From an uncultured Clostridia bacterium (GTDB taxonomy: Bacteria > Bacillota > Clostridia > Christensenellales > UBA1242), in NCBI GenBank assembly GCA_944383255.1, contig CALWOY010000041.1:1-55200 (forward strand): 55,200 nucleotides of DNA. The letters run 5' to 3'. Shown in pieces: positions 20,841 through 54,800 of this stretch. Positions within the stretch are counted from its first letter, which is position 1, and every line of letters begins with the position of its first letter. The notes under the pieces were generated by a model. It was given only the letters and a program-made list of their open reading frames with translations. It did not search any database and was not told the DNA's origin. A program made the translations under genes and the position numbers.

Positions 20841-20915
20841 TGGAGCGAAAGACGAGACTCGAACTCGCAACCGTTGCCTTGGGAAGGCAATGCTCTACCA
20901 TTGAGCCACTTCCGC
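20841..20915 (-). tRNA. tRNA-Gly (anticodon CCC)
   Basis: Hand-folded 75-nt cloverleaf: GCGGAAG acceptor, GCTC/GAGC D-stem, TTGCC/GGCAA anticodon stem with loop TTCCCAA, GCGAG/CTCGT T-stem with TTCGAGT loop, and an encoded CCA. Confidence 0.9.
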
Positions 20916-25626: not shown

Positions 25627-26643
25627 ATGTTAAATTTAATGCTTATTGATTTATGGTTGAGTATAACTCTGTATGTTTTACTTGGTTTATTTGTGGTCTT
25701 GATAGTACTTATGTTTGCTATAGTTCCAATAAAAACTTGGTTTGTTGCACTTGTTTCTGGTGCACATGTTTCTATGGCAAGACTTATTGGTATGAAAATG
25801 CGCCGTATCAAAGTTGCACCTATTGTTGATGCATATATTATGGCAAGAAAAGCGGGCATAAAAGTTGATATTAGCGAACTTGAAACACATCAACTTGCGG
25901 GGGGAGATATACAAAAAGTTATAAATGCTTTAATATCTGCTCATAGTGCAAAAATAAATCTACCAGTTGATCTCGCAAAAGCTATTGATCTTGCTGGACG
26001 TGATGTCAATCTTGCTGTGAGAAATAGTGTTACTCCAAAAGTTATGGAAACTGATTGGATTGGAGCTGTCGCAAAAGATGGTATTGAGCTTAAAGTTAAG
26101 GTTCGCATTACTGTTAGAGTCAATATTGCAAGACTTGTTGGTGGAGCAGGAGACGACACAATATTGGCACGTGTCGGGGAAGGTATTGTTACAACCGTTG
26201 GATCTGCGGAAACTCACACCGAAGTTCTTGAAAACCCAGACTTTATCTCTCAAAAAGTTTTGGATAAAGGTCTAGATACTGGTACTGCATATGAAATTTT
26301 GTCTATAGATATAGCGGACATTGATGTTGGTAAAAACGTTGGTGCCGACCTTATGAAAGACTCCGCCGAGGCTAAAAAAGTTATTGCACAGGCAGAAGCG
26401 GAGGAACGTAGGGCTATGGCTGCCGCTCATGAACAAGAAATGAAAGCCAAAACTCAAGAAATGCAGGCTATGGTGCTCGCTGCACAAGCAGAAGTTCCAA
26501 AAGCAATGGCAGAGGCTATCAAAAATGGCAAAATGGGTGTAATGGACTATTACAAAATTCAAAACCTTACATCAGATACAGCGATGAGAAATGCTATTGC
26601 GGGGGTTGATCCTAATAATAGTAAAAAACCTCCCAAAATTTAA
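25627..26643 (+). CDS. floA: Flotillin-like protein FloA (UPF0365/YqfA)
   Basis: 338 aa. N-terminal hairpin helix, then [18 protein letters not shown] and an SPFH-like core with an Ala/Glu-rich coiled coil. Confidence 0.9.
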
Positions 26644-26657
26644 TAGGAGGCTAAAAT

Positions 26658-27128
26658 ATGATTTGGATAATTATCATATGTTTAGTGGTCTTTATATTTG
26701 TTGTTCTATTATATAATTACCAAAAGATTATAGATGCAATTAAGAACAGAAAAAAATCATCAAAGCCTAAGGCAGAGAAGCCTGTTAAATCTTCCACAAA
26801 TGATTCAATCAATATTGGCGAAGATTTAGTACAAAAAAAAATTGATGAATTAAAACATGAACCTGCAGAAGAGATTATCGTTAAACCATTTATAGTTGCT
26901 GACGAAGATGAGTTAAAAGAACTTGAAGCGAAAAGCAATCATAGCGGAGGTAGGAGAAGCGGTGATATTAAAACTATTTCAAACATAGAAGTAAAAGTTG
27001 AAGATCTTGATGATGAGAACCCATCTCAAGTTTCTAGTACTAAAGAAAATACAGTCGCTGAGCAGATTAAAAATTTACCACCTGAGATTAAAGCTTTGCT
27101 TCTTAGTGATTTTCTCGACAAAAAATAA
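26658..27128 (+). CDS. Hypothetical single-TM acidic protein (positional equivalent of Bacillus yqfB)
   Basis: 156 aa. N-terminal TM helix, a charged tail and an AGGAGG RBS. Third gene of the nfeD-floA operon. Confidence 0.6.
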   Translation: MIWIIIICLVVFIFVVLLYNYQKIIDAIKNRKKSSKPKAEKPVKSSTNDSINIGEDLVQKKIDELKHEPAEEIIVKPFIVADEDELKELEAKSNHSGGRRSGDIKTISNIEVKVEDLDDENPSQVSSTKENTVAEQIKNLPPEIKALLLSDFLDKK

Positions 27129-27256
27129 AATAGCGAAAATTGTGGGCGTATACTTTGTTTCTGTCGGGCAACTCTCACACAGTCACGTACGCTTTGTACG
27201 CTCCTGCGTGAGAGTACCCGTCGAGCCTCGTCTACGCCACACAATTTTCGCTATTT
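27128..27256. repeat. 129-nt long-stem hairpin element (MITE/REP-like)
   Basis: AAATAGCGAAAATTGTG (27128-27144) pairs perfectly with CACAATTTTCGCTATTT (27240-27256). The stem is extended by GGCGTA/TACGCC with one bulge. Inner stems are ACTCTCAC/GTGAGAGT and CGTAC/GTACG. The arm sequence CGCCACACAATTTTCGCT recurs at 27317-27334. Confidence 0.7.
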
Positions 27257-27273
27257 TTACATTTTATAAAACC

Positions 27274-27295
27274 TAGCCCTCGCGGCTATTTTTTT
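27274..27295 (+). terminator. Intrinsic terminator of the nfeD-floA operon
   Basis: TAGCC-ctcgc-GGCTA followed by T7. Confidence 0.5.
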
Positions 27296-27315
27296 GTTTC
27301 TTAAGATAGAGAGTG

Positions 27316-27632
27316 ACGCCACACAATTTTCGCTTTGTCATTCTGAGCCGAAGGCGAAAAATCTCATCATCTTGTCATTCTGAGTCCTACTCCAACGCGT
27401 CGACCTGCGAAGAATCTCAACCCATGTCACCCTGACCGCTCCTCGCCTTGACGGAGAGGAAGGGTCTCAACTATAAGAGATCCTTCGTCAGCCGTCAAGG
27501 AAGCAGTTCTCAGGATGACACCACACTTCTAGTCATTCTGAGCGTCAGCGAAGAATCTAGATTTCTCACTACGTTCGAAATGACATATTATTTTTTGTCA
27601 TTCTGAGGAGAGTTAGCGACGTGAGAATCTCA
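27316..27632. repeat. Cluster of 7 GC-rich REP-like units (TGTCATTCTGAGCG...GAAGAATCTC family), both orientations
   Basis: Units at 27336-27366, 27372-27420, 27425-27470, 27477-27520 (inverted), 27532-27558, 27559-27585 (inverted, degenerate) and 27596-27632. Confidence 0.8.
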
Positions 27633-27676
27633 TCCACTCGCCATTGTGCCGAAAGCGCGGTTTTTGCCTAATGCAC

Positions 27677-27700
27677 AGGACTGAAAAGTCCTTTTTTTTT
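27677..27700 (+). terminator. Intrinsic terminator
   Basis: AGGACT-gaaa-AGTCCT followed by T9. Confidence 0.6.
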
Positions 27701-27784
27701 ACTAAAACTTGGGTGAAAATATTTACCCCCACACCCCATAAATAAAAAAAATTTGCATTTTTTTAAAAAATTTTGCAAAAACGC

Positions 27785-27815
27785 TTGACAAAACAATGGG
27801 GGTGGGGGGTAAAAT
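27785..27815 (+). promoter_or_regulatory. Putative promoter with a G5-T-G6 tract in the spacer
   Basis: TTGACA (27785-27790), 19-nt spacer containing GGGGGTGGGGGG, TAAAAT (27810-27815). The upstream AAATTTTGCAAAAA..GCTTGACA resembles the rplM promoter. Confidence 0.4.
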
Positions 27816-27993
27816 GTTTATAGCCAAAGGGTATTACAAAAAGCAGGTGGTATTTATCCTTTGGTTTTCCCATTTAAACTCAAAATTACAAGGCGTCTGC
27901 GTCGTTTATTGTCGCGCTTGGCTCCACAGTCATTTAGGAAACTAAACTCCAGCGTAGCCAAACGCGCCGAGCTTCGCATTAAGGTAACTCTTC

Positions 27994-28156
27994 TCATTCT
28001 GAGGCTTTTGTGTTTTGTCATTCTGAGCCTTACCCTCTGTCATTCTGAGCGTTAGCGAAGAATCTCAAAGATGTCTCACTTCGCTCGACAAGACACGGAG
28101 AGTGTTCGACACAACACATTATAGTGTCATTCTGAGCGTTAGCGAAGAATCTCAAA
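27994..28156. repeat. Second REP-like cluster forming the 5' UTR of the downstream secreted-protein gene
   Basis: Half units at 27994-28006 and 28016-28030. Identical 32-nt units TGTCATTCTGAGCGTTAGCGAAGAATCTCAAA at 28038-28069 and 28125-28156. A degenerate inverted unit lies at 28069-28095. Confidence 0.8.
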
Positions 28157-28171
28157 AAAAGGAGTAATGAA

Positions 28172-29629
28172 ATGAAAAGTAAAAGATTAAAATTACTACT
28201 TAGTTTATCTTGTTTTATGTTTTGTGTAGTGGCATTATGCTTTGGAGTATACGCAGCGACCACTGCAACGCTTACAATAAGCGGAACAATAACATTTGAG
28301 CCATACAAAATGTATGTAAATAGTATTAAGATAAATAGTATAGACGAAAATGGTTATGTAAGTAATGAAAATCTTAGTGGGTTTAATGGTTTATACTTAA
28401 ATGATTCCAGTGGACTAAGTACAATAGACTTAGGGACACAAACAGTATCTCAATCAGGGGGATTAGAGATAGAGATAAAATTTACATCTTTAGATACAAC
28501 CAAATATCAAAAGGTGACGTTTTCCTACACACAGCCAGAAGGGTATGAAGTAAGAAGCACTTCCACAATACTAAAGCCAAATCCGCAAAATCTAATACAA
28601 GGGGATGCAACAGGCACATTCAAGATATATATATCAAGCGAAACTACAACAAACCTAGATATATCTACATTAAACCTAAATATAGGGTTTGAAGATTATG
28701 GTACAAGTTTACTTCAACATGATACAACAAATGATTATTATGTAGAAATGGGGACAATACCGAATCAAATAAGCGGTACAAACTATGAAAGTGAATATAT
28801 TCGCTGGAAACTCATTGGAACACAAACAGCGGAAGCAACATCCACATCAGCATCGCAATACGCACGTTTTGATGGTACATCTGCACCATCATCTGGTACA
28901 ACAGGAGTGTTTATTCTTGAAACAAATACATTGCTTGAAAGAGATGACGGAACAGGGTATTCACTAAATGAAGTAACATTTAATCATAGTTTTCAAGGAC
29001 ATGGGAGTATGGCTAATTATTATCACTCGGGTGATGAGTGGGAAGAATATGACATACTAGCCAATGATTATGCAACAAGTACAGTCCGTCAATATATAAA
29101 TGGAAAAAACAATGTATACAAAGCAGCCACATACACATCAGCCTCAGGGAATACATCAAGCTCTGTACCAAACGAAACATCTGAGTATTCCAATATGTAC
29201 ACGGACTTTTGTATAGATACAGAGAATGATATAATATACAAGGCAATAATAGGAAGAAGTCTTCAAGATTTATATTTAGGAAACGGTGGTGGTTCTTACA
29301 ATGGACAGCCTGTAGATTTTCCAGAGCAATTGACCACATTAAATAAAGAGTGGTATACATCTTCTACAATTGATAAATTTTGGCTTTTATCTTATTATGA
29401 GGCATATTCACTCTTTTTAGCCAATACTGGTGGCTTACAAGGACAGGCAGACTCAGCTGAGAGGGAATGGCCAAATGGGGCAACTAATTATTATTGGCTG
29501 CGATCTCCTTATGTTGGGAGGAATAGCTATGCATATGCTGTGGGTCCTGAGGGCAATCTCCATAATCTTATGTGTAATGTGCATTTGAGCAGCATTGCCG
29601 CACGCGCTGCTTTCATTTTGTCTATTTAA
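28172..29629 (+). CDS. Secreted two-module protein: N-terminal beta-rich module plus C-terminal DUF6273-like domain
   Basis: 485 aa with a GGAG RBS. The signal peptide ends CFGVYA-ATT. C-terminal hallmarks are IRWKLIG, TVRQYING, KFWLLSYYEA, YYWLRSP and ARAAFIL. Confidence 0.8.
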   Translation: MKSKRLKLLLSLSCFMFCVVALCFGVYAATTATLTISGTITFEPYKMYVNSIKINSIDENGYVSNENLSGFNGLYLNDSSGLSTIDLGTQTVSQSGGLEIEIKFTSLDTTKYQKVTFSYTQPEGYEVRSTSTILKPNPQNLIQGDATGTFKIYISSETTTNLDISTLNLNIGFEDYGTSLLQHDTTNDYYVEMGTIPNQISGTNYESEYIRWKLIGTQTAEATSTSASQYARFDGTSAPSSGTTGVFILETNTLLERDDGTGYSLNEVTFNHSFQGHGSMANYYHSGDEWEEYDILANDYATSTVRQYINGKNNVYKAATYTSASGNTSSSVPNETSEYSNMYTDFCIDTENDIIYKAIIGRSLQDLYLGNGGGSYNGQPVDFPEQLTTLNKEWYTSSTIDKFWLLSYYEAYSLFLANTGGLQGQADSAEREWPNGATNYYWLRSPYVGRNSYAYAVGPEGNLHNLMCNVHLSSIAARAAFILSI

Positions 29630-33354: not shown

Positions 33355-34824
33355 ATGAAAAAAATAGCATTCTTACTTGTAGCCATTTTTTGCTCTTTTG
33401 CTTTTGTCGGCTGTGGCAGTTCATATAAGTATGTCGAAAACTTAACATCATACGATATGGACATACTCTACGACGACACGGCACATACATTAACTATCAA
33501 CCAGACAACCGATTATGTAAACACTTCAAACAACACACTTTCTTATGTCAAATTTCATTTATATCCAAATGCATTTCGCGAAGGGGCAACTGCAAAAGTT
33601 GTAAGTGTGCAAAATAGTGAACTTGCTTATCCAAACGGTGAGAGTTATGGGGATATTGAGATAAATTCTGTTACTATTTCAGACGCAGATGCAAACTTTG
33701 AAGTCGGTGGTGAAGATGAAAATATTTTATCTGTTAATCTTGAAAACGAACTTTATCCTGATGATAGAGTTGTAATAAATTTTGAATATGTTGTCACACT
33801 TGCAAATATTAACCATAGACTTGGCTATGGTGAAAATGCTGTAAACTTATGTAATTTTTATCCAGTTGCTTGTATGTATGAAGGTGACGATTTTGTATGT
33901 GACCTATATAACTCAAATGGTGACCCATTTTATAGTAGTGTAGCCGATTACGATGTCAAAATTGTCTATCCAAATGCCTACACGTTGGCTAGCACTGGCA
34001 ATCAAACAACTGAAAATTTTGAGCAGGTGAAAGAAACCACAATTTCAGCGGACTGTGTTCGAGATTTTGGTATGGTGCTTTCAAAAAATTTTGAACAAAA
34101 AAATAAAATATATGACGATAGAGTGGCATTAAATTACTATTTTTACGACGATGAAAATAGTGACCAAACACTTGAACTTGTGGAAAAGGTTATGACATTT
34201 TTTGAAGAAAAAATCGGAGAATATCCATACTCACAAATAAGCGTCGTCAAAACAAACTTTGTGCATGGCGGAATGGAATATCCAAATATGGTGCTTATCT
34301 CTGATGATGTGGCTGACTATGAAACATATGAACTTGTAATTATTCACGAACTTTTACATCAATGGTGGTATGGAGTTGTTGGAAATAACCAGTTTGACTA
34401 TGGCTGGATGGATGAAGGCTTGACAGAGTTTTGTACAGTTTACTTTTTTGAAAAACATCCTGAGTACAATAGAACAATGTCCGAAATGATATCAAGTGCA
34501 ACACAAAGTTACAAGACTTTTGCACGTGTCTATGAGTCAGTGCAGGGCAGTGTGGATACAAGTATGAACCGCCCACTTGACGAATTTTCCACTGAGCCAG
34601 AGTATGTATACAACACCTATGTCAAAGGCACACTAATGTTTTCCACTATCTATGACCTTGTTGGTGAAAATAAATTTATTGATGCATTAAAATATTATTA
34701 TTCTCACAATCTCTATGGCATAGCAACACCAAGCACAGTTATTCAGTGCTTTTCACGTGGAAGTGGCAAAAATCTTGAAGGAATTTTCACAAGTTTTTTA
34801 GATGGAAAAGTTGTAATAAAATAG
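33355..34824 (+). CDS. M1-family (gluzincin) metallopeptidase lipoprotein
   Basis: 489 aa. Lipobox-like signal AFVGC-GSS. HELLHQWWYG...WMDEGLTEF gives the HExxH-18-E arrangement. Confidence 0.85.
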   Translation: MKKIAFLLVAIFCSFAFVGCGSSYKYVENLTSYDMDILYDDTAHTLTINQTTDYVNTSNNTLSYVKFHLYPNAFREGATAKVVSVQNSELAYPNGESYGDIEINSVTISDADANFEVGGEDENILSVNLENELYPDDRVVINFEYVVTLANINHRLGYGENAVNLCNFYPVACMYEGDDFVCDLYNSNGDPFYSSVADYDVKIVYPNAYTLASTGNQTTENFEQVKETTISADCVRDFGMVLSKNFEQKNKIYDDRVALNYYFYDDENSDQTLELVEKVMTFFEEKIGEYPYSQISVVKTNFVHGGMEYPNMVLISDDVADYETYELVIIHELLHQWWYGVVGNNQFDYGWMDEGLTEFCTVYFFEKHPEYNRTMSEMISSATQSYKTFARVYESVQGSVDTSMNRPLDEFSTEPEYVYNTYVKGTLMFSTIYDLVGENKFIDALKYYYSHNLYGIATPSTVIQCFSRGSGKNLEGIFTSFLDGKVVIK

Positions 34825-44894: not shown

Positions 44895-45917
44895 ATGAAA
44901 AAGGCAGTTATTTTTTTGTGTTTTATTTTTATATTCACATTATCTGGATGTGTTTTTAATGCCAACATAGATACATATGACGAAAATGTTGACATGACAC
45001 CAAGGCAAATACAAATAAATGACCAAACTTCACTTACGGATGTTATTTCAAATATCAAAGGTGCGGTTGTGGGTGTTATGGCAGTAACTGGCGGAGGTTA
45101 TAGTATTGGAAGTGGAGTTGCAATAAGTGACGGCGGATATATTGTCACAAATCATCACGTTATTGAAAACGCAAACTCCATAACCGTTTACTTGGCGAAC
45201 CAAACCACAACAAGAGCAAGTCTTTTATATAGTGATAGTGCCATGGACATAGCGGTGATAAAGTCAGAAAAAAACTTGCCTTATCTTGTGTGCAGTGATG
45301 ATGTGCCTAGCGTGGGTGAAGATGTAATTGCTATTGGGACACCACTTTCACTTGATTTTAGAAATACCGTTACAAAAGGTATAGTTAGTGCATTAAATCG
45401 TACGGTGGGCATATCCAATTCTGGTGGATACACAACTTATATGCAAAACTTAATTCAGCATGATGCCAGTATAAATCCGGGGAATAGTGGTGGACCACTG
45501 CTTAGAACAAACGGAGAAGTGGTTGGAATAAACACATTAAAAGCCAGCGATGCTGAAGGTATTGGTTTTGCAATTCCTATAAGTATTGGGCAAAGTGTAG
45601 TTGAAAATTTATCAAGCGATGGTGAATATTCTCAAGGTTATCTTGGTATATTTGCAGTTGATGTTGAAATGGCAAAGTTTGAGAAGTTTGAAGTTGATGA
45701 AAAAGTGGGGGCATATGTGTATAGTGTTGATGAAAATATTTCATCGTGCATAAAAGAGGGCGATATAATTTTAGAATTTAATGGGCAAGAAATTAAAAAC
45801 TCACTTGATTTTAGACTCTCTATGTACAAAATAAAGCCAGATCAAAAGGTAACTCTAAAAGTAAATCGCGGTGGAGAAATTTTGGAACTTGAATGCAGTG
45901 CTTTAAAGAAAGTGTGA
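44895..45917 (+). CDS. HtrA/DegP-family trypsin-like serine protease with PDZ domain
   Basis: 340 aa. N-terminal anchor or lipobox (LSGC). Catalytic His (TNHHV), Asp (DIAVIK) and Ser (GNSGGPLL). C-terminal PDZ domain. Confidence 0.88.
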   Translation: MKKAVIFLCFIFIFTLSGCVFNANIDTYDENVDMTPRQIQINDQTSLTDVISNIKGAVVGVMAVTGGGYSIGSGVAISDGGYIVTNHHVIENANSITVYLANQTTTRASLLYSDSAMDIAVIKSEKNLPYLVCSDDVPSVGEDVIAIGTPLSLDFRNTVTKGIVSALNRTVGISNSGGYTTYMQNLIQHDASINPGNSGGPLLRTNGEVVGINTLKASDAEGIGFAIPISIGQSVVENLSSDGEYSQGYLGIFAVDVEMAKFEKFEVDEKVGAYVYSVDENISSCIKEGDIILEFNGQEIKNSLDFRLSMYKIKPDQKVTLKVNRGGEILELECSALKKV

Positions 45918-45940
45918 GTTTTGCTTGCACTTTTTTTTTT
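45909..45940 (+). terminator. Possible intrinsic terminator after the htrA-like gene
   Basis: AAAGTG...CACTTT stem with a 13-nt loop, followed by a T10 run. Overlaps the stop codon. Confidence 0.4.
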
Positions 45941-45961
45941 GTTTAGTATAATAAACTTGAT

Positions 45962-46918
45962 ATGGAAAAAAAATTAACATATGACAAATATGATGCAGGG
46001 CAAGGTTTTTTGTTTGCAATTTTTATGCCTTTTGTCATTTCGCTTGTTTATATATTTTTAGTTTATATTGTTGCAAGTATATGTGGCGCAGATTTGGAAA
46101 ATATTACAGAAAATACAGTATATGTCATTTTTGCAACATTAGTTAGTCCAATTGCTTTTGTGTTGACATTTGTAATTATAAATAAATTTTCTAGAACAAA
46201 TTATATTGTTGCCTTAGGTATTAAAAGTAAATTTAGTATAAAATATCTTCTTGTAACAATATTTTTGTCACTTGTTTGTGTGTTTGGAATGTCTAACTTT
46301 GTATGTCTTTTTGATGCTGTTTTGGCAAAGATAGGCTTTAATGGTTCATATTCACTTCCAATTCCTATGGATAATTTTGGTTATTTGGTTTTAAATTTGA
46401 TTGTGCTAGCCGTATTACCCGCTATTTGCGAAGAACTTGTTTTTCGTGGTATAATATTCAATGGTTTAAAGCAATATGGAAATATGAAAGCGGTTTTTCT
46501 TTCCGCAACGCTTTTTATGCTTGTACATTCAAGTGTAGAACAAACAGTTTATCCATTTTTTGTTGGAATAGTGCTTGCACTTTTGATGCTTAGAACAAAT
46601 AATATAATCTATCCGATTTTGTTGCATTTTTTTAATAACGCCATTGTTGTTGTCATAAATTATATTTCTGTTCATAGTGGCATGGTTTCAGAATTTACAC
46701 TTACCACATTTAATATTTTATTTGCAATTGTTCTTGCTATTTTGGCTGTGCTTTGTATTGTGATTGTTTTTAAAATAATTTTAAGAAATAAAAATAAATC
46801 ATATTCACAAGAAAATTTAAACCAAAATGAAAGTTCGCCAAATACATTTTTATATGTGGGTATAATTGGGGCTATAATTATTTGGATTTTTGATTTAATT
46901 TCAGGCTTTGTTGCATAA
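45962..46918 (+). CDS. CPBP-family intramembrane glutamic endopeptidase (CAAX protease/Abi type)
   Basis: 318 aa, polytopic. Motifs CEELVFRG, FMLVHS and HFFNNA are present. Confidence 0.85.
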   Translation: MEKKLTYDKYDAGQGFLFAIFMPFVISLVYIFLVYIVASICGADLENITENTVYVIFATLVSPIAFVLTFVIINKFSRTNYIVALGIKSKFSIKYLLVTIFLSLVCVFGMSNFVCLFDAVLAKIGFNGSYSLPIPMDNFGYLVLNLIVLAVLPAICEELVFRGIIFNGLKQYGNMKAVFLSATLFMLVHSSVEQTVYPFFVGIVLALLMLRTNNIIYPILLHFFNNAIVVVINYISVHSGMVSEFTLTTFNILFAIVLAILAVLCIVIVFKIILRNKNKSYSQENLNQNESSPNTFLYVGIIGAIIIWIFDLISGFVA

Positions 46919-46938
46919 CATACTTAAAAGGAAAAAAT

Positions 46939-48042
46939 ATGTATAGAGATAAAGAAATTTTTAATACAAACTTAGTATACTTTTTAATTATTTGTTTGTT
47001 TATAACAATTAGGATAATTTCTTCCACATTCAGCATTCCAACAGTTTGGGGATATATTTTAAACGGTGTTATTCAAATTGGGCTTATGTTAAGCCTGCCA
47101 CTTTTTTTGTTTAGTTATCTTCAAAAACAAAAAGTATCAAAGACTGTAAAAGATTTTGGTTTTAATAAAATTGGAATAAAAACCATTCTTTTATCATTTG
47201 TTGCTGGCATCATAGTTTATTTAATAACAATTTTTGTGGCTACATTTTTTTCAGCAATACTTTCACTTCTTGGGTATGACAATTCATCTTCTGGCACAGT
47301 AGTGTCAAGTTATCCATTGTGGCTTTTATTTGTAGAACTTTTTGTGACCGCTGTTTTGCCTGGAATTTGTGAAGAAGTTGCACATAGAGGTATGCTACTT
47401 AACGGTTACAAAAAAACTGGCACTAAAAAAGCGATTATACTTTCAGGCTTTTTATTTGGTCTTATGCATTTAAACATTGAACAGTTTTTCTATGCTAGTT
47501 TAATTGGAATTTTCTTTGGTTTTGTTGCATTTTTCACAGACAGCATATTCCCAACCATGATTATGCACTTTACAAATAATGCAATAAGCACCTTTATGGG
47601 TTATGCTTCTGCTAACAACTTGCCGATTTATGGTGCTTTTAATACTTTTATTGGGAATATGTTTGGTGGCAATGCGTTTTTGTCAATTATGATGATGTTT
47701 TTATTCATTTTAATTCTTGTAGGACTTATGTATCTTATTGTTATGGCGATGTTTAAAGACACAAGGTTAAAAAATATGGCAAAAGTTGCAGATAAAGCCG
47801 TTAAGGAAGAACTAAGGCGTAGACTTATGTCTGGTGTTGGCGGTGCTGAAGAAGTTGAAAAAGATGATGATATTGATGTTGATTTAAAAACTGTAGGGAA
47901 TAATAAAATATTTTCAATAGTTTTGCGTACTGGTTATAAAAGTGTCTATAAACCAACATTTCGTGATAACATATTTTTATATGTAAATTTATTTTTGGGA
48001 ATAGCCACGACATTATCAACTTTTATTTGGGGCGTATTGTAA
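46939..48042 (+). CDS. CPBP-family intramembrane glutamic endopeptidase, paralog with charged C-terminal extension
   Basis: 367 aa. Motifs CEEVAHRG, FGLMHL and HFTNNA, plus about 100 aa of an extra charged segment and a final TM helix. Confidence 0.85.
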   Translation: MYRDKEIFNTNLVYFLIICLFITIRIISSTFSIPTVWGYILNGVIQIGLMLSLPLFLFSYLQKQKVSKTVKDFGFNKIGIKTILLSFVAGIIVYLITIFVATFFSAILSLLGYDNSSSGTVVSSYPLWLLFVELFVTAVLPGICEEVAHRGMLLNGYKKTGTKKAIILSGFLFGLMHLNIEQFFYASLIGIFFGFVAFFTDSIFPTMIMHFTNNAISTFMGYASANNLPIYGAFNTFIGNMFGGNAFLSIMMMFLFILILVGLMYLIVMAMFKDTRLKNMAKVADKAVKEELRRRLMSGVGGAEEVEKDDDIDVDLKTVGNNKIFSIVLRTGYKSVYKPTFRDNIFLYVNLFLGIATTLSTFIWGVL

Positions 48043-48526: not shown

Positions 48527-49927
48527 ATGACTAAAGCACAAACAAAAAACAAAAAACATAGAAGTTTTTTTAATATCCTTGAAATAATTGTGGACATAAT
48601 AGTTTATCCTGTGATTATTATATCATTTATGTCCAGTTTTTTTATGCTTGTGGCAAAAAGTAAAAATGTAATAACTCCAATATTTGGTTATACTTTTGTT
48701 CGAGTGCTTACAAATTCTATGTCGGTATATTGTCCAGAAGTACAGCGAAATTTTGTAAGTGGTGATGTTGTTGTATTAAAAACACAAGATACAATGTATG
48801 AAGTTGGAGATGTCATTGCATTTTATAATTATACCGATACAGCAGATTCACTTGCAAAGATAAATTTAACATCTGTACAATCTGGACAAGAACAAGTTTT
48901 TGATGAAGAGGGGAATCCAGTTCTTGATGAACAGGGTAATCCAACTTATAGAAATAACAACTATTTGCCAGTAAAAGATGGCGAAGGCAATACCATATTT
49001 GACCAAACCCTTTATGATAATGTTTTAAATACTGAAGTTGGCCAAAATATTCCAGGCACAAATTTTACAAAACAAAGTGTGCCAGAAAATAGACATGATT
49101 TAGACTATGTTCGTGATGTATCAAGTGTGAGAGTGTATTTTCACCAAATTGTGCAAATAAGGATTGATACATCTGGCACAATATTTTATATTACAAAAGG
49201 CACTACAAATTCTTCAACTGAAATAGTGAGAGAAGATTTGGTTGCAGGAAAATATGTTTCAACTGGTTCTTGGCTTACTGGTCTTGTCAGTTTTTGTGCG
49301 TCGACCGAAGGTATGATTTTGCTTGTAGTTGCGCCAATTTCTTTTATAGTTCTAATAGAGTTATTGTCAATACTTGAGCAAGTGAATAATATTCTTTTAG
49401 AAAAAAAAGTTATTGCTCGTGAGATGCCATTTGACAGTAAAGAGTGTGACAAGGCAAGAATAGGTATTGAAATGCGAGAAGTTGATAAAATTTTCTACTA
49501 TGATGTTATGCCCCAAGATTATAAATATGAGGTATTCGATTTCTTATGGGGCGAATTCGAAAACTCCAAAAAGAAAAAAGAGAAATATAGTTATGAAACA
49601 GCAATCGAGTCTGTTAAGGTCTATAATATGGAAGATCCATCTAAATATTATGAAGTATGGAAAAAAAGTTTTACTTCTAACAAGAAAAAACAACAAGTTG
49701 ATATAGCTTTTCAACGTTCACTTAAAGAGAAATATATTAATGTGGTGTGTACTGACTATAAAAATGAAAAACCTAGTATGCCAAAATCAAAAATAGGTAA
49801 GAAAAAAACATTTAGTGATATAAACAAAACTATAGAAAAAATAAAAGAACGTGAGAAAAAGTTGCAAAAAGACTTAAATCAAGTAGCTGATAATACAAAT
49901 TTAAAAGAGAATAAAGATGACAAATAA
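48527..49927 (+). CDS. SipW-type (ER/archaeal-type) signal peptidase I paralog 1 with large insertion and long C-terminal tail
   Basis: 466 aa. Order is TM1, then VLTNSMSV (Ser box), GDVVVLK, GDVIAFY, an insert of about 100 aa, VYFHQIV (His box), TKGTTNSS, TM2, and a Lys/Glu-rich tail of about 190 aa. Confidence 0.75.
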   Translation: MTKAQTKNKKHRSFFNILEIIVDIIVYPVIIISFMSSFFMLVAKSKNVITPIFGYTFVRVLTNSMSVYCPEVQRNFVSGDVVVLKTQDTMYEVGDVIAFYNYTDTADSLAKINLTSVQSGQEQVFDEEGNPVLDEQGNPTYRNNNYLPVKDGEGNTIFDQTLYDNVLNTEVGQNIPGTNFTKQSVPENRHDLDYVRDVSSVRVYFHQIVQIRIDTSGTIFYITKGTTNSSTEIVREDLVAGKYVSTGSWLTGLVSFCASTEGMILLVVAPISFIVLIELLSILEQVNNILLEKKVIAREMPFDSKECDKARIGIEMREVDKIFYYDVMPQDYKYEVFDFLWGEFENSKKKKEKYSYETAIESVKVYNMEDPSKYYEVWKKSFTSNKKKQQVDIAFQRSLKEKYINVVCTDYKNEKPSMPKSKIGKKKTFSDINKTIEKIKEREKKLQKDLNQVADNTNLKENKDDK

Positions 49928-50960
49928 AAAGACAAAAAATACGATTTATACACTTGCTGGTAAAATTGGGGACGTCTTTTTAATCCCTATACTTTTACTA
50001 GCACTTATTGTAACACTTATAATTTTTACACAGAACCAAAGTAATAAAGTTCCTTCTTTTTTTGGAGTTAGTGTTGTAAAAATCCTTTCTGGTTCCATGG
50101 AGAATAGTGGATTTAGAACGGGAGATAGTGTTTTTGTTACTAAAACGGATACAGATTCATTGTGGGTTGGGGATATTATAGCATTTTATCAATATCAAGA
50201 TAGTACAGATAATGTTTTTGAAAAAATTGAACTTGAAAGTGTAGATGATAGCGTAGAGATAACATTAGAAGAACCAGAAGGTCGTCGCGAAATGTCCGAT
50301 ATCACTGGAGGATCATATAGAGTTGTTTTCCATGAAATTGTTGGTGTTCTTATGGATCACACTGGTGCTAAGTATTTCAGGACAAAAGGGTCATCAAATG
50401 CGAGTGTAGATAGCATACTTATCCGTGATGATTTTGTTGTTGGCAAATATTTGAATACACCCATTTGGCTTAGAGATATTCTTCGTTGGGTTTCAAGTTC
50501 AATTGGGATGATTTGTCTTGTATGTTTACCACTTGGTATTATGATAATACTTCAATCCTTGGCTCTCATTGAACAAATTAATTTTATGTATGTAGAGAAA
50601 AAACTCATGAACGGCTCTATGGGTTGGCAAGAAAGTGAAGCTCAGAGATTAATAAAAACCGGAGAAATGGAAGTCCTGTGCCGTATAGTTATGTTTCCCA
50701 AGGTGCCAGATGACGAAAAAGAAGATGCTTTAGATGAAATTTGGAAGTTTGGAGATAAACCAACTAATAACCAAAAGGACTTATTACATCTTGCAATGCT
50801 CTCATCTAAATTTCTTAATACAAAAGGTCAAAAAGCATATTTTGAATTTTGGAAACAAAATTTGAGATTAAAATCGGATATAAAAGCCTTGGATGAGCAG
50901 CTTCAAATTTTGTCTATTAATGAACATATAAATAAAGAAAAAACTAGCAAAAAAATTTAG
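49917..50960 (+). CDS. SipW-type signal peptidase I paralog 2 with C-terminal tail
   Basis: 347 aa, overlapping paralog 1 by 11 nt. Order is TM1, ILSGSMENS, GDSVFV, GDIIAFY, VVFHEIV, TKGSSNAS, TM2, and a tail of about 130 aa related to that of paralog 1. Confidence 0.8.
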   Translation: MTNKKTKNTIYTLAGKIGDVFLIPILLLALIVTLIIFTQNQSNKVPSFFGVSVVKILSGSMENSGFRTGDSVFVTKTDTDSLWVGDIIAFYQYQDSTDNVFEKIELESVDDSVEITLEEPEGRREMSDITGGSYRVVFHEIVGVLMDHTGAKYFRTKGSSNASVDSILIRDDFVVGKYLNTPIWLRDILRWVSSSIGMICLVCLPLGIMIILQSLALIEQINFMYVEKKLMNGSMGWQESEAQRLIKTGEMEVLCRIVMFPKVPDDEKEDALDEIWKFGDKPTNNQKDLLHLAMLSSKFLNTKGQKAYFEFWKQNLRLKSDIKALDEQLQILSINEHINKEKTSKKI

Positions 50961-51017
50961 TGTGTAAAAATTGATTTTTGTTACATACTAACATTGTTAA
51001 AAAAATGCTAGTTTTTT
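50938..51017 (+). promoter_or_regulatory. Long-range hairpin with trailing T-run between the peptidase genes and the secreted-protein gene
   Basis: AAAAAACTAGCA (50938-50949) pairs with TGCTAGTTTTTT (51006-51017). The inner stem is TAGTGTGTAA/TTACATACTA. It spans the stop codon of paralog 2. Confidence 0.4.
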
Positions 51018-51040
51018 TAATTTAAAAAAAGGAGAAAATT

Positions 51041-51628
51041 ATGAAAAGAAAATTTAAATTATTTGCAACGGTGGCATCGCTTTGTTTATCTGTGGCACTT
51101 ATGGCATTCGGCGTATATGCTGCAACTTCAGTTTCTTATTCGGTAAATGGTACAGTTTCATATAATATGACTGATGTACTGGTTACAGTAACCATGCAAA
51201 CTGAGTATGTAACGGATGAGCATCAGGGACACTCTGATGGTGCGGTAACAGAACTTAGTTACGCAAACACACAACAAGTTGATACTTACACATCTTACAA
51301 TACTGGAACTAACCTTCCAGAAGGAAACGGTACACATACTGCGGATGCCGACATCAACCTCAACACTTCAAGTGCATGGAAATTGATTATCACTGTTTCC
51401 ACTATAAATCCGGGAGGAGTGGAAGTTGCAATTAATGATGCTAGTTTTGGACTTGCTGGAACTGAAAACTTTGCTGTTTTGGCAGATGTTTCAAATTCTT
51501 ATGAAACTTTAATTGAAGAAGATGGGAGTGCTCAATTTGTTTATTATGTATATTTAAAAGACACAACTGTGGCAATAGGGAGTGCAAACTTCTCGATTAA
51601 TCTCAACATAACACAATATACCGCATAA
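51041..51628 (+). CDS. Small secreted Thr/Ser/Asn/Val-rich protein; candidate SipW substrate (TasA/camelysin-like role)
   Basis: 195 aa. AGGAG RBS. The signal peptide ends AFGVYA-ATS. The mature part has no Cys and ends INLNITQYTA. Confidence 0.75.
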   Translation: MKRKFKLFATVASLCLSVALMAFGVYAATSVSYSVNGTVSYNMTDVLVTVTMQTEYVTDEHQGHSDGAVTELSYANTQQVDTYTSYNTGTNLPEGNGTHTADADINLNTSSAWKLIITVSTINPGGVEVAINDASFGLAGTENFAVLADVSNSYETLIEEDGSAQFVYYVYLKDTTVAIGSANFSINLNITQYTA

Positions 51629-51662
51629 CAAAAAAATCAGTCTTAGTACTGATTTTTTTTTG
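51629..51662 (+). terminator. Intrinsic terminator
   Basis: A-run, ATCAGT-cttagt-ACTGAT, then a T-run of at least 9. Confidence 0.65.
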
Positions 51663-51670
51663 TTTTTTTA

Positions 51671-51699
51671 TTGACAACATTTGGGTGTTTGGATATAAT
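51671..51699 (+). promoter_or_regulatory. Consensus sigma-A promoter of rpoB
   Basis: TTGACA (51671-51676), 17 nt, TATAAT (51694-51699). Leaves a leader of about 140 nt before rpoB. Confidence 0.65.
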
Positions 51700-51844: not shown

Positions 51845-54800
51845 ATGCAACACAATATGCCAACACTTAAAAAAATTAAATGTGGAAAAAATGAACGTTA
51901 TACCTTTTCCAAACTTGATGAGATAGCTACTCTTCCAAATCTTTTGGATATTCAAAAAGAGCCATACAAAGAATTTTTGGAACATGGCATATATGATATA
52001 CTTCAAGAGTTATCACCAATTACTGACTATAGTGGTAAGGCAAAACTCTATTTTCTTGACACGGATATGTCAGATAAACCAAAATATGACATAAAAGAAT
52101 GTCGTAGACGTGGACTTTCTTATTCTTTGCCACTTAAAGTAAAGGCAAGGTTTGTTGTTGAAGATAGCGGTGAAGCCATTGATCAAGAGGTTTATCTTGG
52201 TGATATACCACTTATGACTGATCAAGGTTCATTTATCTTCAACGGAATTGAAAGAGTTGTTGTAAGCCAGGTTACTCGTTCTCCAAGTGTGTATTTCACT
52301 CGTGAAAAAAATGATAATTCCACGCTTCGTGGTCAAATATATCCTAGTCATGGAATGTGGCTTGAAATAGAGCAAGGTGCAAATGAAACACTTAAAGTTG
52401 TACTTGATCGTTCACATAAAATAACTCTTGGCTTATTTTTAAAATGCTTTGGCTATACTAATGATGAAATTATTAATCTTTTTGGTGGGCATAGACTTAT
52501 AAAGCAAATAATTGAAAAAGAACCACAAACAACGCAAGAAGAGGCACTTATTGAACTTGCTAGAAAAACTCGTCCAGCAGATGTTCCAAATGCTGAAAGT
52601 ACAAGAAACTATATAAATCTTTTGTTCTTTTCTGATGCATATTACAATGTCACTCGTGTTGGTAGATACAAAATCAATAAAAAACTATCACTTGCAACAA
52701 GAATAACAAATTTAGTAAGCGCTCAAAACATTGTCATAGATGATGAAGTCGTCGTTAAAAAAGGCGAAAAGATAGGCGCTGAAGTCGCTAGGCGAATACA
52801 AGATAGTGGTATAAATGAAGTTTATGTTGAACTTAATGGCAGAAACCACTTAATTAGAGGAAACAACCGCGTAAGACTTTCAAAGATTTTTCCATGTGAC
52901 GAAAAATCACTTGGAATATTAGAAGAAGTATATTATCCAAAACTTGTTCAAATACTCAAAGAAAATAAAACAAAAGAAAAACGTATTGAAGCTATAAAGG
53001 CAAATGCAAAGGACTTAATGATTACAACTCTTACAATGGATGATATTTTGGCCACAATAAGTTATTATCTTGACCTAATTGAAGGTATCGGCGAAATTGA
53101 TAATATTGACCACTTGTCCAACAAGCGTGTTGCAACTGTTGGTGAACTTATTGGGAATGCTTTCCGTGCTGGTGTTAAAAAACTAGGTGCAAATATAAAG
53201 GAAACACTTCAAGGTAAAGAACTTAGCGAGATTACACCATCTCAAATTGTTAACCCACGTCCAGTAAATAAGGCATTAAAAGACTTTATTGCACAATCAC
53301 AATTAAGTCAACTTATGGATCAAATAAATTCATTAAGTGGACTTACTCAAAAACGTAAATTCTCAGCAGTTGGTCCCGGTGGCGTTAAAAAAGAAAGAGC
53401 AAGTGCCGAAGTTCGTGATATTCACTATACACACTATGGTAGAATTTGTGCTATTGAAACCCCAGAAGGTCAAAGTATTGGTCTTATCAACACCATGGCT
53501 TCATATTGTAAGATAAATGAATATGGCTTTATGGAAACACCTTATAGGAAAGTTGATAAATCCACAGGTAAAGTAGAAAAATCTTATGAATATTACATGG
53601 CAGATGTTGAAGATAACTGCTATATCGCAGAAGCGGTTGAACCACTAGATGAAGAGCAAAGATTTATAAATGACCGTGTTCTTTGTAGACACAAAGATGC
53701 CATTGTAGAAGTTCCAAAGTCTATGGTTGACCTTATGGATGTATCTCCAAGGCAGTTTATTTCAGCAGCAACCGCACTTATTCCATTCCTTGGAAACGAT
53801 GACTCTGCCCGTGCGCTTATGGGTTCTAACATGCAACGTCAGGCAGTTCCAATTCTTAGACCTGAAGCGCCTATTGTTGGAACAGGTATGGAACGTCCAG
53901 TTGCAAAAGACTGTGGAGATATGATTGTAGCAAAGCGTAATGGTGTGGTTGATTATGTCAGCGCTGATGTAATTAAAGTTCGTGCAGATGAGGGTGGAAT
54001 TGATGAATATAAACTTATAAAATTCCAAAAAACCAATGCAGATACTTGTAACAATCAAAAACCAAATTGTCAGAAAGGTCAAAAAGTTAAGAAAGGTGAC
54101 CTTTTAGCAGATGGTTATGCAACTCAAAATGGTGAACTCGCCCTTGGAAAAAATGTCCTTGTTGGTTACATGAATTGGGAAGGATATAACTTTGAAGATG
54201 CTATACTTATTAGTGAACGTATTGTAAAAGAAGATGTTTATACATCTATAACACTTAAAGTTGAAGAAATGCCATGCAGAGCAACAAAACTTGGAGATGA
54301 GGAAATTACTCGTGATATTCCAAACCTAAGTGAAGATGCTCTTAAAAACCTTGATGAGAATGGCATTGTTCGCGTAGGGACAGAAGTTCGCCCTGGGGAT
54401 ATATTAGTTGGTAAAGTTACACCAAAAGGTGAAACTGAGCTCACCCCAGAAGAAAGACTGCTTCGTGCAATATTTGGCGATAAAGCCCGTGAAGTTCGTG
54501 ATACTTCACTCCGCGTTAAACATGGCCGTGGTGGTGTTGTTGTTAATGTTGAAGTATTTTCAAGAAAAAATAAAGATGAACTTGACCCAGGTATTAATAT
54601 GCTTGTCAAAGTTTATGTAGCACAAAGAAGAAAACTCTCAGTCGGTGACAAGATGTCTGGTCGTCACGGAAATAAAGGTGTCGTATCCAGAGTGCTTCCA
54701 GAAGCAGATATGCCATTTATGGCTAATGGTCAGCCACTTGACATTGTGTTAAACCCACTAGGCATTCCATCCCGTATGAATGTCGGTCAGGTGCTAGAAG

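Follow-up and report, generated by a model that had tools for sequence, protein, structure and literature searches.

Near the 3′ end of the stretch of DNA analyzed here (the window: 55,200 nucleotides (nt), positions 1 to 55,200 of contig CALWOY010000041.1 of an uncultured Clostridia bacterium), three open reading frames (ORFs) in one direction, pepA, pepB and sub, code for two related membrane proteins and a small exported protein, all of them named 'hypothetical protein' in the databases. Together they form a real, conserved module without prior annotation. In our reading, to which we assign a probability of about two in three, pepA and pepB encode membrane-bound, SipW-like signal peptidases that are dedicated to a single class of Sec-exported surface proteins sharing an almost invariant leader. 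This reading is carried by the following observations: (i) the enzyme and cargo genes are persistently adjacent, (ii) the cargo proteins are united by a leader that is under strong selection at the protein level, (iii) the Ser nucleophile and the His base conserved in SipW/SEC11-type enzymes are present, and (iv) both peptidases have, by hydropathy, a topology in which the N- and C-termini are inside and the catalytic domain is outside.

The features of the module, and of one further gene of the window, are as follows.

48527-49927, + strand: pepA, a 466-amino-acid (aa) SipW-like signal peptidase paralogue
49397-49924, + strand: pepA tail (aa 291-466), a conserved helical domain and, after it, a Lys-rich end of low conservation
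49917-49927, + strand: 11 nt shared by the end of pepA (stop) and the beginning of pepB (start), ATGACAAATAA
49917-50960, + strand: pepB, a 347-aa signal peptidase I of the endoplasmic reticulum (ER)/archaeal type
50589-50957, + strand: pepB tail (aa 225-347), a cytoplasmic all-alpha domain
51030-51034, + strand: strong Shine-Dalgarno sequence of sub, AGGAG, 6 nt before the ATG
51041-51628, + strand: sub, a 195-aa secreted beta-sandwich protein of a family without annotation
51041-51121, + strand: class-specific, nearly invariant signal peptide of sub, aa 1-27, MKRKFKLFATVASLCLSVALMAFGVYA
51122-51163, + strand: conserved first mature beta-strand of sub, aa 28-41, ATSVSYSVNGTVSY
51630-51668, + strand: terminator-like hairpin and U-run 3′ of sub, ending the module (−10.4 kcal/mol, z −3.6)
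28172-29629, + strand: 485-aa leader-class protein with a C-terminal DUF6273 and a related signal peptide and first strand, ...ALCFGVYAATTATLTISGTITF; MKSKRLKLLLSLSCFMFCVVALCFGVYAATTATLTISGTITF

The layout given in a preliminary description of this DNA (three genes, an 11-nt overlap, an 80-nt spacer between pepB and sub, and a strong ribosome-binding site) was found in place, as was each of the motif pairs quoted there for the two enzymes: TNSMS/SGSME, GDVIAFY/GDIIAFY, YFHQIV/VFHEIV, EVFDFLW/ALDEIW and YYEVW/YFEFW. Given the 11-nt overlap, translational coupling of pepA and pepB is likely.

The paired signal peptidases and their cytoplasmic tails

Hydropathy analysis placed two transmembrane (TM) segments in each enzyme (aa 13-44 and 250-291 in pepA, aa 10-42 and 188-224 in pepB), in agreement with the earlier proposal of a TM helix, a catalytic domain, a second TM helix and a cytoplasmic tail. 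The pepB protein passed the curated cut-off of the model TIGR02228 (sigpep_I_arch), with 59.2 bits against 51.85. The pepA protein, which is homologous to pepB along its entire length, stayed below this cut-off and gave only a weak match to the SipW model (33.8 bits, E 2.4e-8). The SipW equivalog NF046067 (NCBIfam) has a cut-off of 190 bits, and the scores obtained with it were 62.1 bits for pepB and 33.8 bits for pepA; judged by these scores, which lie far under the cut-off, and by their lengths (347 and 466 aa versus approximately 190 aa), the two proteins are classed as SipW-like and not as SipW orthologues. No Pfam matches were reported for the peptidases. Comparison of the family profile with solved structures returned human SEC11C (E 6e-11) and SEC11A (E 4e-10), the match spanning two stretches, box B and boxes D-E. 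The TIGR02228 score and the SEC11 matches thus uphold the original assignment of both enzymes to the SipW/ER-type signal peptidases.

The Ser of box B (SxSM) and the His of box D are invariant in both paralogue families. In pepB, Ser60 (50094-50096), His139 (50331-50333) and Asp165 (50409-50411) align with the catalytic residues of SEC11A/C; in pepA, Ser64 (48716-48718) and His206 (49142-49144) are conserved. The family-conserved Asp165 is aligned with the second Asp of the SEC11 motif GDNNAVDD, which is the Asp of the catalytic triad in the SEC11A structure. Box E reads KGTTN in pepA and KGSSN in pepB, so that the GDNN motif is not kept; GD(N/S)N is retained in short relatives of ~200 aa and in some other tail-bearing members. 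On the basis of these alignments, pepB is very probably active, and pepA probably so, though less surely.

Between boxes C and D, pepA carries an extracellular insert of ~90 aa, the length of which is conserved among pepA orthologues. A short internal repeat, DEEGNPVLDEQGNPT, was noted within this insert (aa ~122-148, window positions ~48890-48970). The TM helices of pepA are unusually well conserved (0.89 for TM1 and 0.82 for TM2, versus 0.71-0.78 for the catalytic boxes).

The tails comprise 177 aa in pepA (290-466) and 123 aa in pepB (225-347), and are rich in Lys (K 15-20%) and Glu (E ~10%). They co-align across ~125 columns, in which Q, E, Y and W residues are invariant; this bears out their suggested relatedness, and the domain opens with IEQ(I/V)N..EKK(L/V) at the cytoplasmic end of TM2. 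The AlphaFold2 model of pepB residues 212-347 is all-alpha and contains seven helices (predicted local distance difference test score, pLDDT, 93.8; predicted TM-score, pTM, 0.86). Foldseek detected no relative of this fold in the PDB (best E-value 2.5), PDB sequence profiles contained no sequence relative among solved structures, and nothing in Pfam, NCBIfam or PHROGs matched above any curated cut-off. Of 1.84 billion representative proteins searched with a profile, only 75 have the tail. In full-length matches it always lies directly C-terminal of a SipW-like core, and the short, core-less matches are probably fragments, since they start within TM2 or appear chimeric. The narrow distribution and the constant peptidase core therefore point to a real domain that is confined to such peptidases. 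The earlier view of the tail as a conserved domain without a described relative was confirmed by all of these searches.

The tail may be a built-in accessory domain, for which pairing of the paralogues, docking to the translocon or the nascent chain, and signaling are speculative candidate roles. In B. subtilis, SipW has a signaling role that depends on its short cytoplasmic C-terminus and not on its activity as a peptidase (Terra et al. 2012, as cited in PMC8767453). One tail helix is acidic in most pepB orthologues. The idea that an acidic tail binds the basic n-region of the leader was considered and is not supported, as the domain as a whole carries net charges anywhere between −10 and +6.

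The conserved leader and the substrate family

The leader of sub and its relatives has the consensus MKRKFKLFATVASLCLSVALMAFGVYAA, with ASLCLx in its hydrophobic part and GVYA|A at the end. Mean pairwise identity reaches 0.98 in the n-region and 0.92 in the h+c region; it is 0.61 over the next 14 residues (A-x-x-V-T/S-Y-x-V-x-G-S/T-V-S/T-Y/F) and 0.23 in the remainder of the sub family beyond the first strand, the mature parts being ~23-30% identical. Within aa 28-41, hydrophobic residues alternate around an invariant Gly; this strand is a candidate donor strand. The invariant residues of the leader are encoded by 2-5 synonymous codons, and selection on the leader therefore acts at the level of the peptide and not of the DNA. 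This variety of codons led us to reject conservation at the DNA or RNA level, as well as recent gene conversion, as the source of the invariance.

A Cys residue at aa 15 of sub (51083-51085; ASLCL), in the middle of the h-region, is invariant in the aligned sub family and occurs in at least 90% when the most divergent leaders are included. Conserved Cys residues are also found in TM2 of pepB (aa ~199-205, CLVCLP). The two might reflect an intramembrane contact.

In the preliminary description the leader was likened to that of TasA, which is cognate to SipW. We used as query B. subtilis TasA, the mature part of which (residues 28-261) was confirmed against PDB 8AUR and 5OF1. An hhalign comparison of sub with TasA aligned the signal peptide only (residues 1-29 on TasA 1-29, in register, 45% identity), so the likeness is retained, as a weak match with a probability of 23%. 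The known TasA cleavage site falls at A27|A28 of sub in this alignment, and cleavage of sub is therefore predicted there. Signal peptidases follow a rule of small residues at −3 and −1. None of the NCBIfam signal-peptide models matched at E<=1, and a profile search with the leader alone returned just fragments of 49-87 aa. The leader region of 61 of the 69 sub-family members gave a sub-threshold match to NF053819, a model of an enterococcal LPXTG protein.

The sub protein has a single hydrophobic segment, at the N-terminus (hydropathy). Its mature part is Cys-free and rich in T, V, S, A and N, in accordance with the T/S/N/V-rich composition reported before. No Pfam or NCBIfam family covers sub, PHROGs gave nothing above a curated cut-off, and no relative was found with PDB sequence profiles. 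In the AlphaFold2 model (pLDDT 84.3), a signal-peptide helix is followed by a ten-strand beta-sandwich, and the best PDB matches of this model (Foldseek) are FimA type 1 pilins, including self-complemented ones (E 6e-5, probability 1.0).

The proposal that the 195-aa protein is akin to TasA/camelysin was borne out neither by sequence nor by fold (a jellyroll in TasA), and we reject it: Peptidase_M73 (TasA/camelysin) matched none of the 69 sub-family members at E<=1, the hhalign alignment is confined to the leader, and no TasA entry is among the 50 best Foldseek PDB matches of the model. The C-terminus of sub is ...NITQYTA. Among the 120 sub-family matches listed, an LPXTG-like motif near the C-terminus is lacking in 114, and an LPxT[GAN]-like string lies within the last 60 residues in 6. 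Having no C-terminal LPXTG, sub does not belong to the sortase-dependent class of surface proteins.

Genomic linkage and further cargo

With each GTDB species represented by one genome, a pattern scan yielded 48 loci in ~26 bins. All of these loci are from uncultured Clostridia, labeled Christensenella, Catabacter, Eubacteriales or just Clostridia, a lineage which is presumably gut-associated. In ~17 species-level bins or lineages, substrate genes lie next to peptidase genes. The order pepA-pepB-sub, with one or two copies of sub, is found in loci L001, L005-L011, L014, L017, L019, L021 and L022 and in the metagenome contigs L057 and L061. The order in L053 is sub-sub-pepB-like-pepA-like, and in L055 a leader-class gene lies ~800 nt 5′ of a long-tailed peptidase with a different, low-complexity tail; the leaders of these two loci have drifted (…ICLCL…GVFAA and …AAFCL…GVLAA) with the pattern kept. 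In a bin with a solitary peptidase (L003), a leader-class protein is encoded elsewhere (L051). The linkage that the preliminary description expected in other genomes does recur across many of them, rearranged neighborhoods included.

More sub paralogues, frequently as divergent pairs, are found elsewhere in the same bins. The leader and first strand also precede proteins of 563-615 aa with BspA-type leucine-rich repeats (LRR_5; E 3e-35 and 1e-32) and DUF6273 proteins of ~500 aa. One of the latter architecture, the 485-aa protein listed above, is encoded ~20 kb from the peptidases and is their probable second substrate: its residues 1-48 align with the leader and first strand at an hhalign probability of 95.7%, and DUF6273 scores 25.7 bits against a cut-off of 23.5. 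The same leader-DUF6273 architecture is present in L076. The region of ~1 kb 5′ of the 485-aa gene (27129-28171) contains no ORF of at least 110 aa and no Rfam match, and lies in the stretch of highest G+C content of the window (0.40 at 26001-28000, versus ~0.30 elsewhere).

The clade of the window and the L001 clade have tandem peptidase pairs, as do two deeper lineages, L056 and, with the order reversed, L053. Not every genome has the duplication: pepA is missing from the arrangement tadA-pepB-sub of one species (L016), and other deep lineages have one long-tailed peptidase. This single enzyme is encoded near or just 5′ of spoIVA (L003 8001-10805, L054 7001-10267, L055 7001-12402), which may be only ancestral synteny; the presence of spoIVA indicates that these lineages form spores. 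A 775-aa 'fused' double peptidase, P0180, was considered as a physical coupling of the paralogues and rejected, because the L056 DNA has a TGA stop between the two ORFs. In the gene call, this TGA (L056 5160-5162) was read as Trp, merging two adjacent peptidase genes; P0180 is an artefact of annotation or else may indicate that genes on this contig were called under genetic code 4/25.

The same neighborhoods bear on a different explanation, namely that pepA and pepB, like the Sec11-type enzymes of archaea, are the general, housekeeping type I signal peptidases of the lineage, that their adjacency to sub is incidental synteny, and that the leader is constrained in some other way, e.g. by targeting or expression level. 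The module does lie in a conserved housekeeping block, and the long-tailed peptidases beside spoIVA in deep lineages are solitary, with no adjoining substrate gene. No P-type signal peptidase was seen in 763 kb of DNA, and B. subtilis SipS had no tblastn match there, but these 763 kb cover only a small part of each genome, too little for the tblastn result to be informative. However, general signal peptidases neither need nor come with near-invariant leaders, such as the 92% identity of the h+c region found here over 23% identity of the mature part, and the adjacency survives changes of gene order and neighborhood (L053, L055). Moreover, other exported proteins of the window have ordinary lipoprotein-type leaders (the HtrA-like protein, ...LSGC, 44895-45917, and the protein encoded at 33355-34824, ...FVGC). 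We therefore regard this explanation as decidedly unlikely.

The conserved block consists of genes for L9, an MBL-fold protein, HtrA and two CPBP proteases, (rlmH) and tadA, followed by rpoB or the S10 operon. In the window, a tadA-like deaminase, two Rce1/CPBP-type intramembrane proteases, an HtrA-like protease, a metallo-beta-lactamase (MBL)-fold protein and ribosomal protein L9 are encoded 5′ of the module. On its 3′ side, rpoB starts at 51846 and runs past the window end; its promoter is a perfect sigma-70 consensus, TTGACA-17-TATAAT (51671-51699, +). At 44895-48042 (+), the HtrA-like Ser protease, which has a lipoprotein-type leader, is followed by the two tandem Rce1/CPBP-type proteases, and L001 and L053 show the two genes at 44895-48042 in the same order 5′ of their peptidase genes. 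These protease genes may be functionally tied to the module. No RNA family was found in or near the module with Rfam, the sole Rfam match within the window being one tRNA gene (20844-20915, −).

Proposed role and comparison with known systems

We propose that Sec would insert the pre-protein with the basic n-region in the cytoplasm, as in the standard layout of signal peptides, and that the invariant h-region would be read within the membrane by the unusually conserved TM helices of the peptidases. Ser/His/acid catalysis on the outer face, by pepB and/or pepA, would cut after VYA and free the conserved N-terminal beta-strand. The mature Ig-like beta-sandwiches, alone or with BspA-LRR or DUF6273 passengers, would then stay at the cell surface or assemble on it. 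Adhesin-type passengers share the leader, and for this reason we prefer to speak of a dedicated route that sorts and processes one class of surface proteins, rather than of a single fiber subunit. Of the earlier interpretation as a peptidase-plus-subunit module, the SipW-type enzymes, the novel tails, the linkage and the likeness of the leader stand, and the TasA/camelysin nature of the substrate does not.

Several points weigh against a dedicated pathway. The distinction between 'dedicated' and 'general' would depend on the invariance of the leader, the probability of its alignment with that of TasA is low, and the module is situated in a housekeeping neighborhood. No accessory genes recur near the paralogues (sortase, chaperone and glycosyltransferase genes were sought; the neighbors are housekeeping or variable), and no chaperone/usher genes recur across ~75 loci. 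The Foldseek similarity to pilins is weak (TM-scores 0.29-0.36), and the monomer model packs the N-terminal strand of sub within the sandwich of the same subunit. Both window peptidases have Ser/Thr in place of the first Asp of GDNN, and the pepA clade of the window has Glu at the triad-acid position, with a 2-residue deletion, Asp being present in deeper pepA orthologues. Because of these replacements, activity, above all that of pepA, is not assured.

Such residues would also fit a scheme in which the leader is not cleaved and acts as a conserved N-terminal membrane anchor, with pepA and pepB serving mainly as non-catalytic holdases or scaffolds or as regulators acting through their tails. 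Besides the degenerate box E of both enzymes and the Glu of pepA, conservation along whole TM helices is typical of helices in lasting interaction, and PMC8767453 describes, after Terra et al. 2012, a peptidase-independent function of B. subtilis SipW that needs the cytoplasmic C-terminus. On the other hand, Ser and His are invariant over deep divergence in both families, the Asp aligned with the SEC11 triad is retained in pepB and in the deeper pepA clade, and V-Y-A|A fits the −3/−1 rule and aligns with the TasA site. An uncleaved anchor is thus very improbable.

Returning to dedicated processing, the freed strand may complement a neighboring subunit, as in TasA/TapA; plain beta-sandwich proteins would then be the major subunits, and proteins with LRR or DUF6273 would be added through the same strand as minor subunits bearing adhesins. 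We consider assembly through the shared strand possible rather than probable, because the models are of monomers only and the similarity to pilins is weak. It is quite possible, though less likely than not, that sub and its paralogues are instead soluble secreted or spore-associated proteins that do not polymerize, with the first strand being structural or an extended recognition site. This alternative is consistent with the confident packing of the N-terminal strand in the monomer model (pLDDT 84-91, residues 31-60), with the lack of recurrent assembly genes nearby, with the spoIVA genes, and hence sporulation, of related lineages, and with the first description of TasA as spore-associated (PMC9674648). 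Conservation up to position +14 is, however, longer than we judge recognition by signal peptidase to need, and persists across unrelated passengers. The alternating hydrophobic residues around an invariant Gly resemble donor strands, and the top structural matches are donor-strand pilins. The comparison of this pattern is drawn from the N-terminal extensions of chaperone-usher subunits.

A bolder form of the proposal is a new, sortase- and usher-independent Gram-positive pathway of surface assembly, in which leader and donor strand would direct diverse cargo into strand-exchanged surface filaments, the peptidases would time cleavage, and the tails would couple the process to the inner face (translocon, nascent chain or signaling). 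We regard this as conjectural and unlikely.

The conservation of both the TM helices and the h-region offers a handle on how an ER-type signal peptidase recognizes a signal peptide within the membrane, and the module poses the question of what a cytoplasmic domain does on a signal peptidase. It also points to the probable surface or adhesion proteins of an uncultured Christensenella-like lineage, and the leader provides a simple sequence tag for finding the entire cargo set in metagenomes. No publication linking Christensenella to SipW/TasA-type systems was found in the literature searched.

SipW-type peptidases are the textbook case of signal peptidases dedicated to few matrix proteins. The module resembles tapA-sipW-tasA in that an ER-type signal peptidase gene lies beside substrate genes, and in that the substrate leader has the same layout as that of TasA and, in an alignment of low probability, is in register with it. 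Cleavage frees a conserved N-terminal beta-strand in TasA and, judging from sequence, would do so here, and different proteins share this strand, like TapA and TasA. The donor strand of TasA consists of its first 11 mature residues, 28-38 (PMC9674648); the N-terminus of TapA is similar to that of TasA and has been proposed to prime assembly (PMC9674648; PMC10151520), and construction around the TasA donor strand is reported to recur in Fim/Pap pilins (PMC10151520). A cytoplasmic C-terminus of the peptidase is a further likeness, and is functionally important in SipW (PMC8767453). In contrast, the mature proteins described here are not TasA/camelysin and no TapA-like gene is present. The enzymes have 347 and 466 aa, versus the 189 positions of the SipW model, with a folded helical tail of ~110 aa versus ~20 residues in SipW; moreover, there are two paralogous peptidases, and box E is without the GDNN Asp.

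In C. perfringens, sipW-bsaA-bsaB-bsaC encodes a SipW-type peptidase and secreted matrix subunits. These Bsa subunits oligomerize via N-terminal donor-strand exchange; BsaA and BsaB are remote, isopeptide-locked TasA homologues, and BsaC is a larger, operon-encoded accessory vWA protein with its own predicted secretion signal (10.1101/2024.11.04.621531). The combination of a clostridial SipW-type peptidase with genes for secreted proteins is the same. However, sub is no TasA homologue, the passengers are BspA-LRR and DUF6273, and neither a tail domain nor a peptidase duplication is described in C. perfringens.

SEC11 is part of a complex in which the accessory subunits are separate proteins, and it is a general signal peptidase. 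SEC11A/C and archaeal Sec11 (S26B) have the same catalytic core as pepA and pepB; the Ser and His line up, as does the acid of pepB. In the module, each enzyme carries a second TM helix and a cytoplasmic domain in its own chain, and the substrates have one fixed leader. The likeness to the chaperone-usher pilin FimA, an Ig-like sandwich with an N-terminal strand, extends at most to the building principle, as TM-scores are ~0.3, there is no sequence similarity, and the host is monoderm, without a chaperone or usher near the loci.

As in the sortase/LPXTG, exosortase/PEP-CTERM and archaeosortase/PGF-CTERM systems, one signal is found on many paralogous or multi-domain cargos and tracks a dedicated membrane protease. 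In contrast to them, the signal lies at the N-terminus, where it is at the same time the signal peptide for Sec, and the enzyme is a signal peptidase and not a transpeptidase. New with respect to all of these systems are the leader class, the substrate family with its multi-domain cargo, the cytoplasmic helical domain and the conserved pair of peptidase paralogues. The module would thus represent an elaboration, in another lineage, of the principle of dedication known from SipW, with a more rigid leader class, a new fold family of substrates, adhesin-bearing members, a folded cytoplasmic domain and a paralogous partner.

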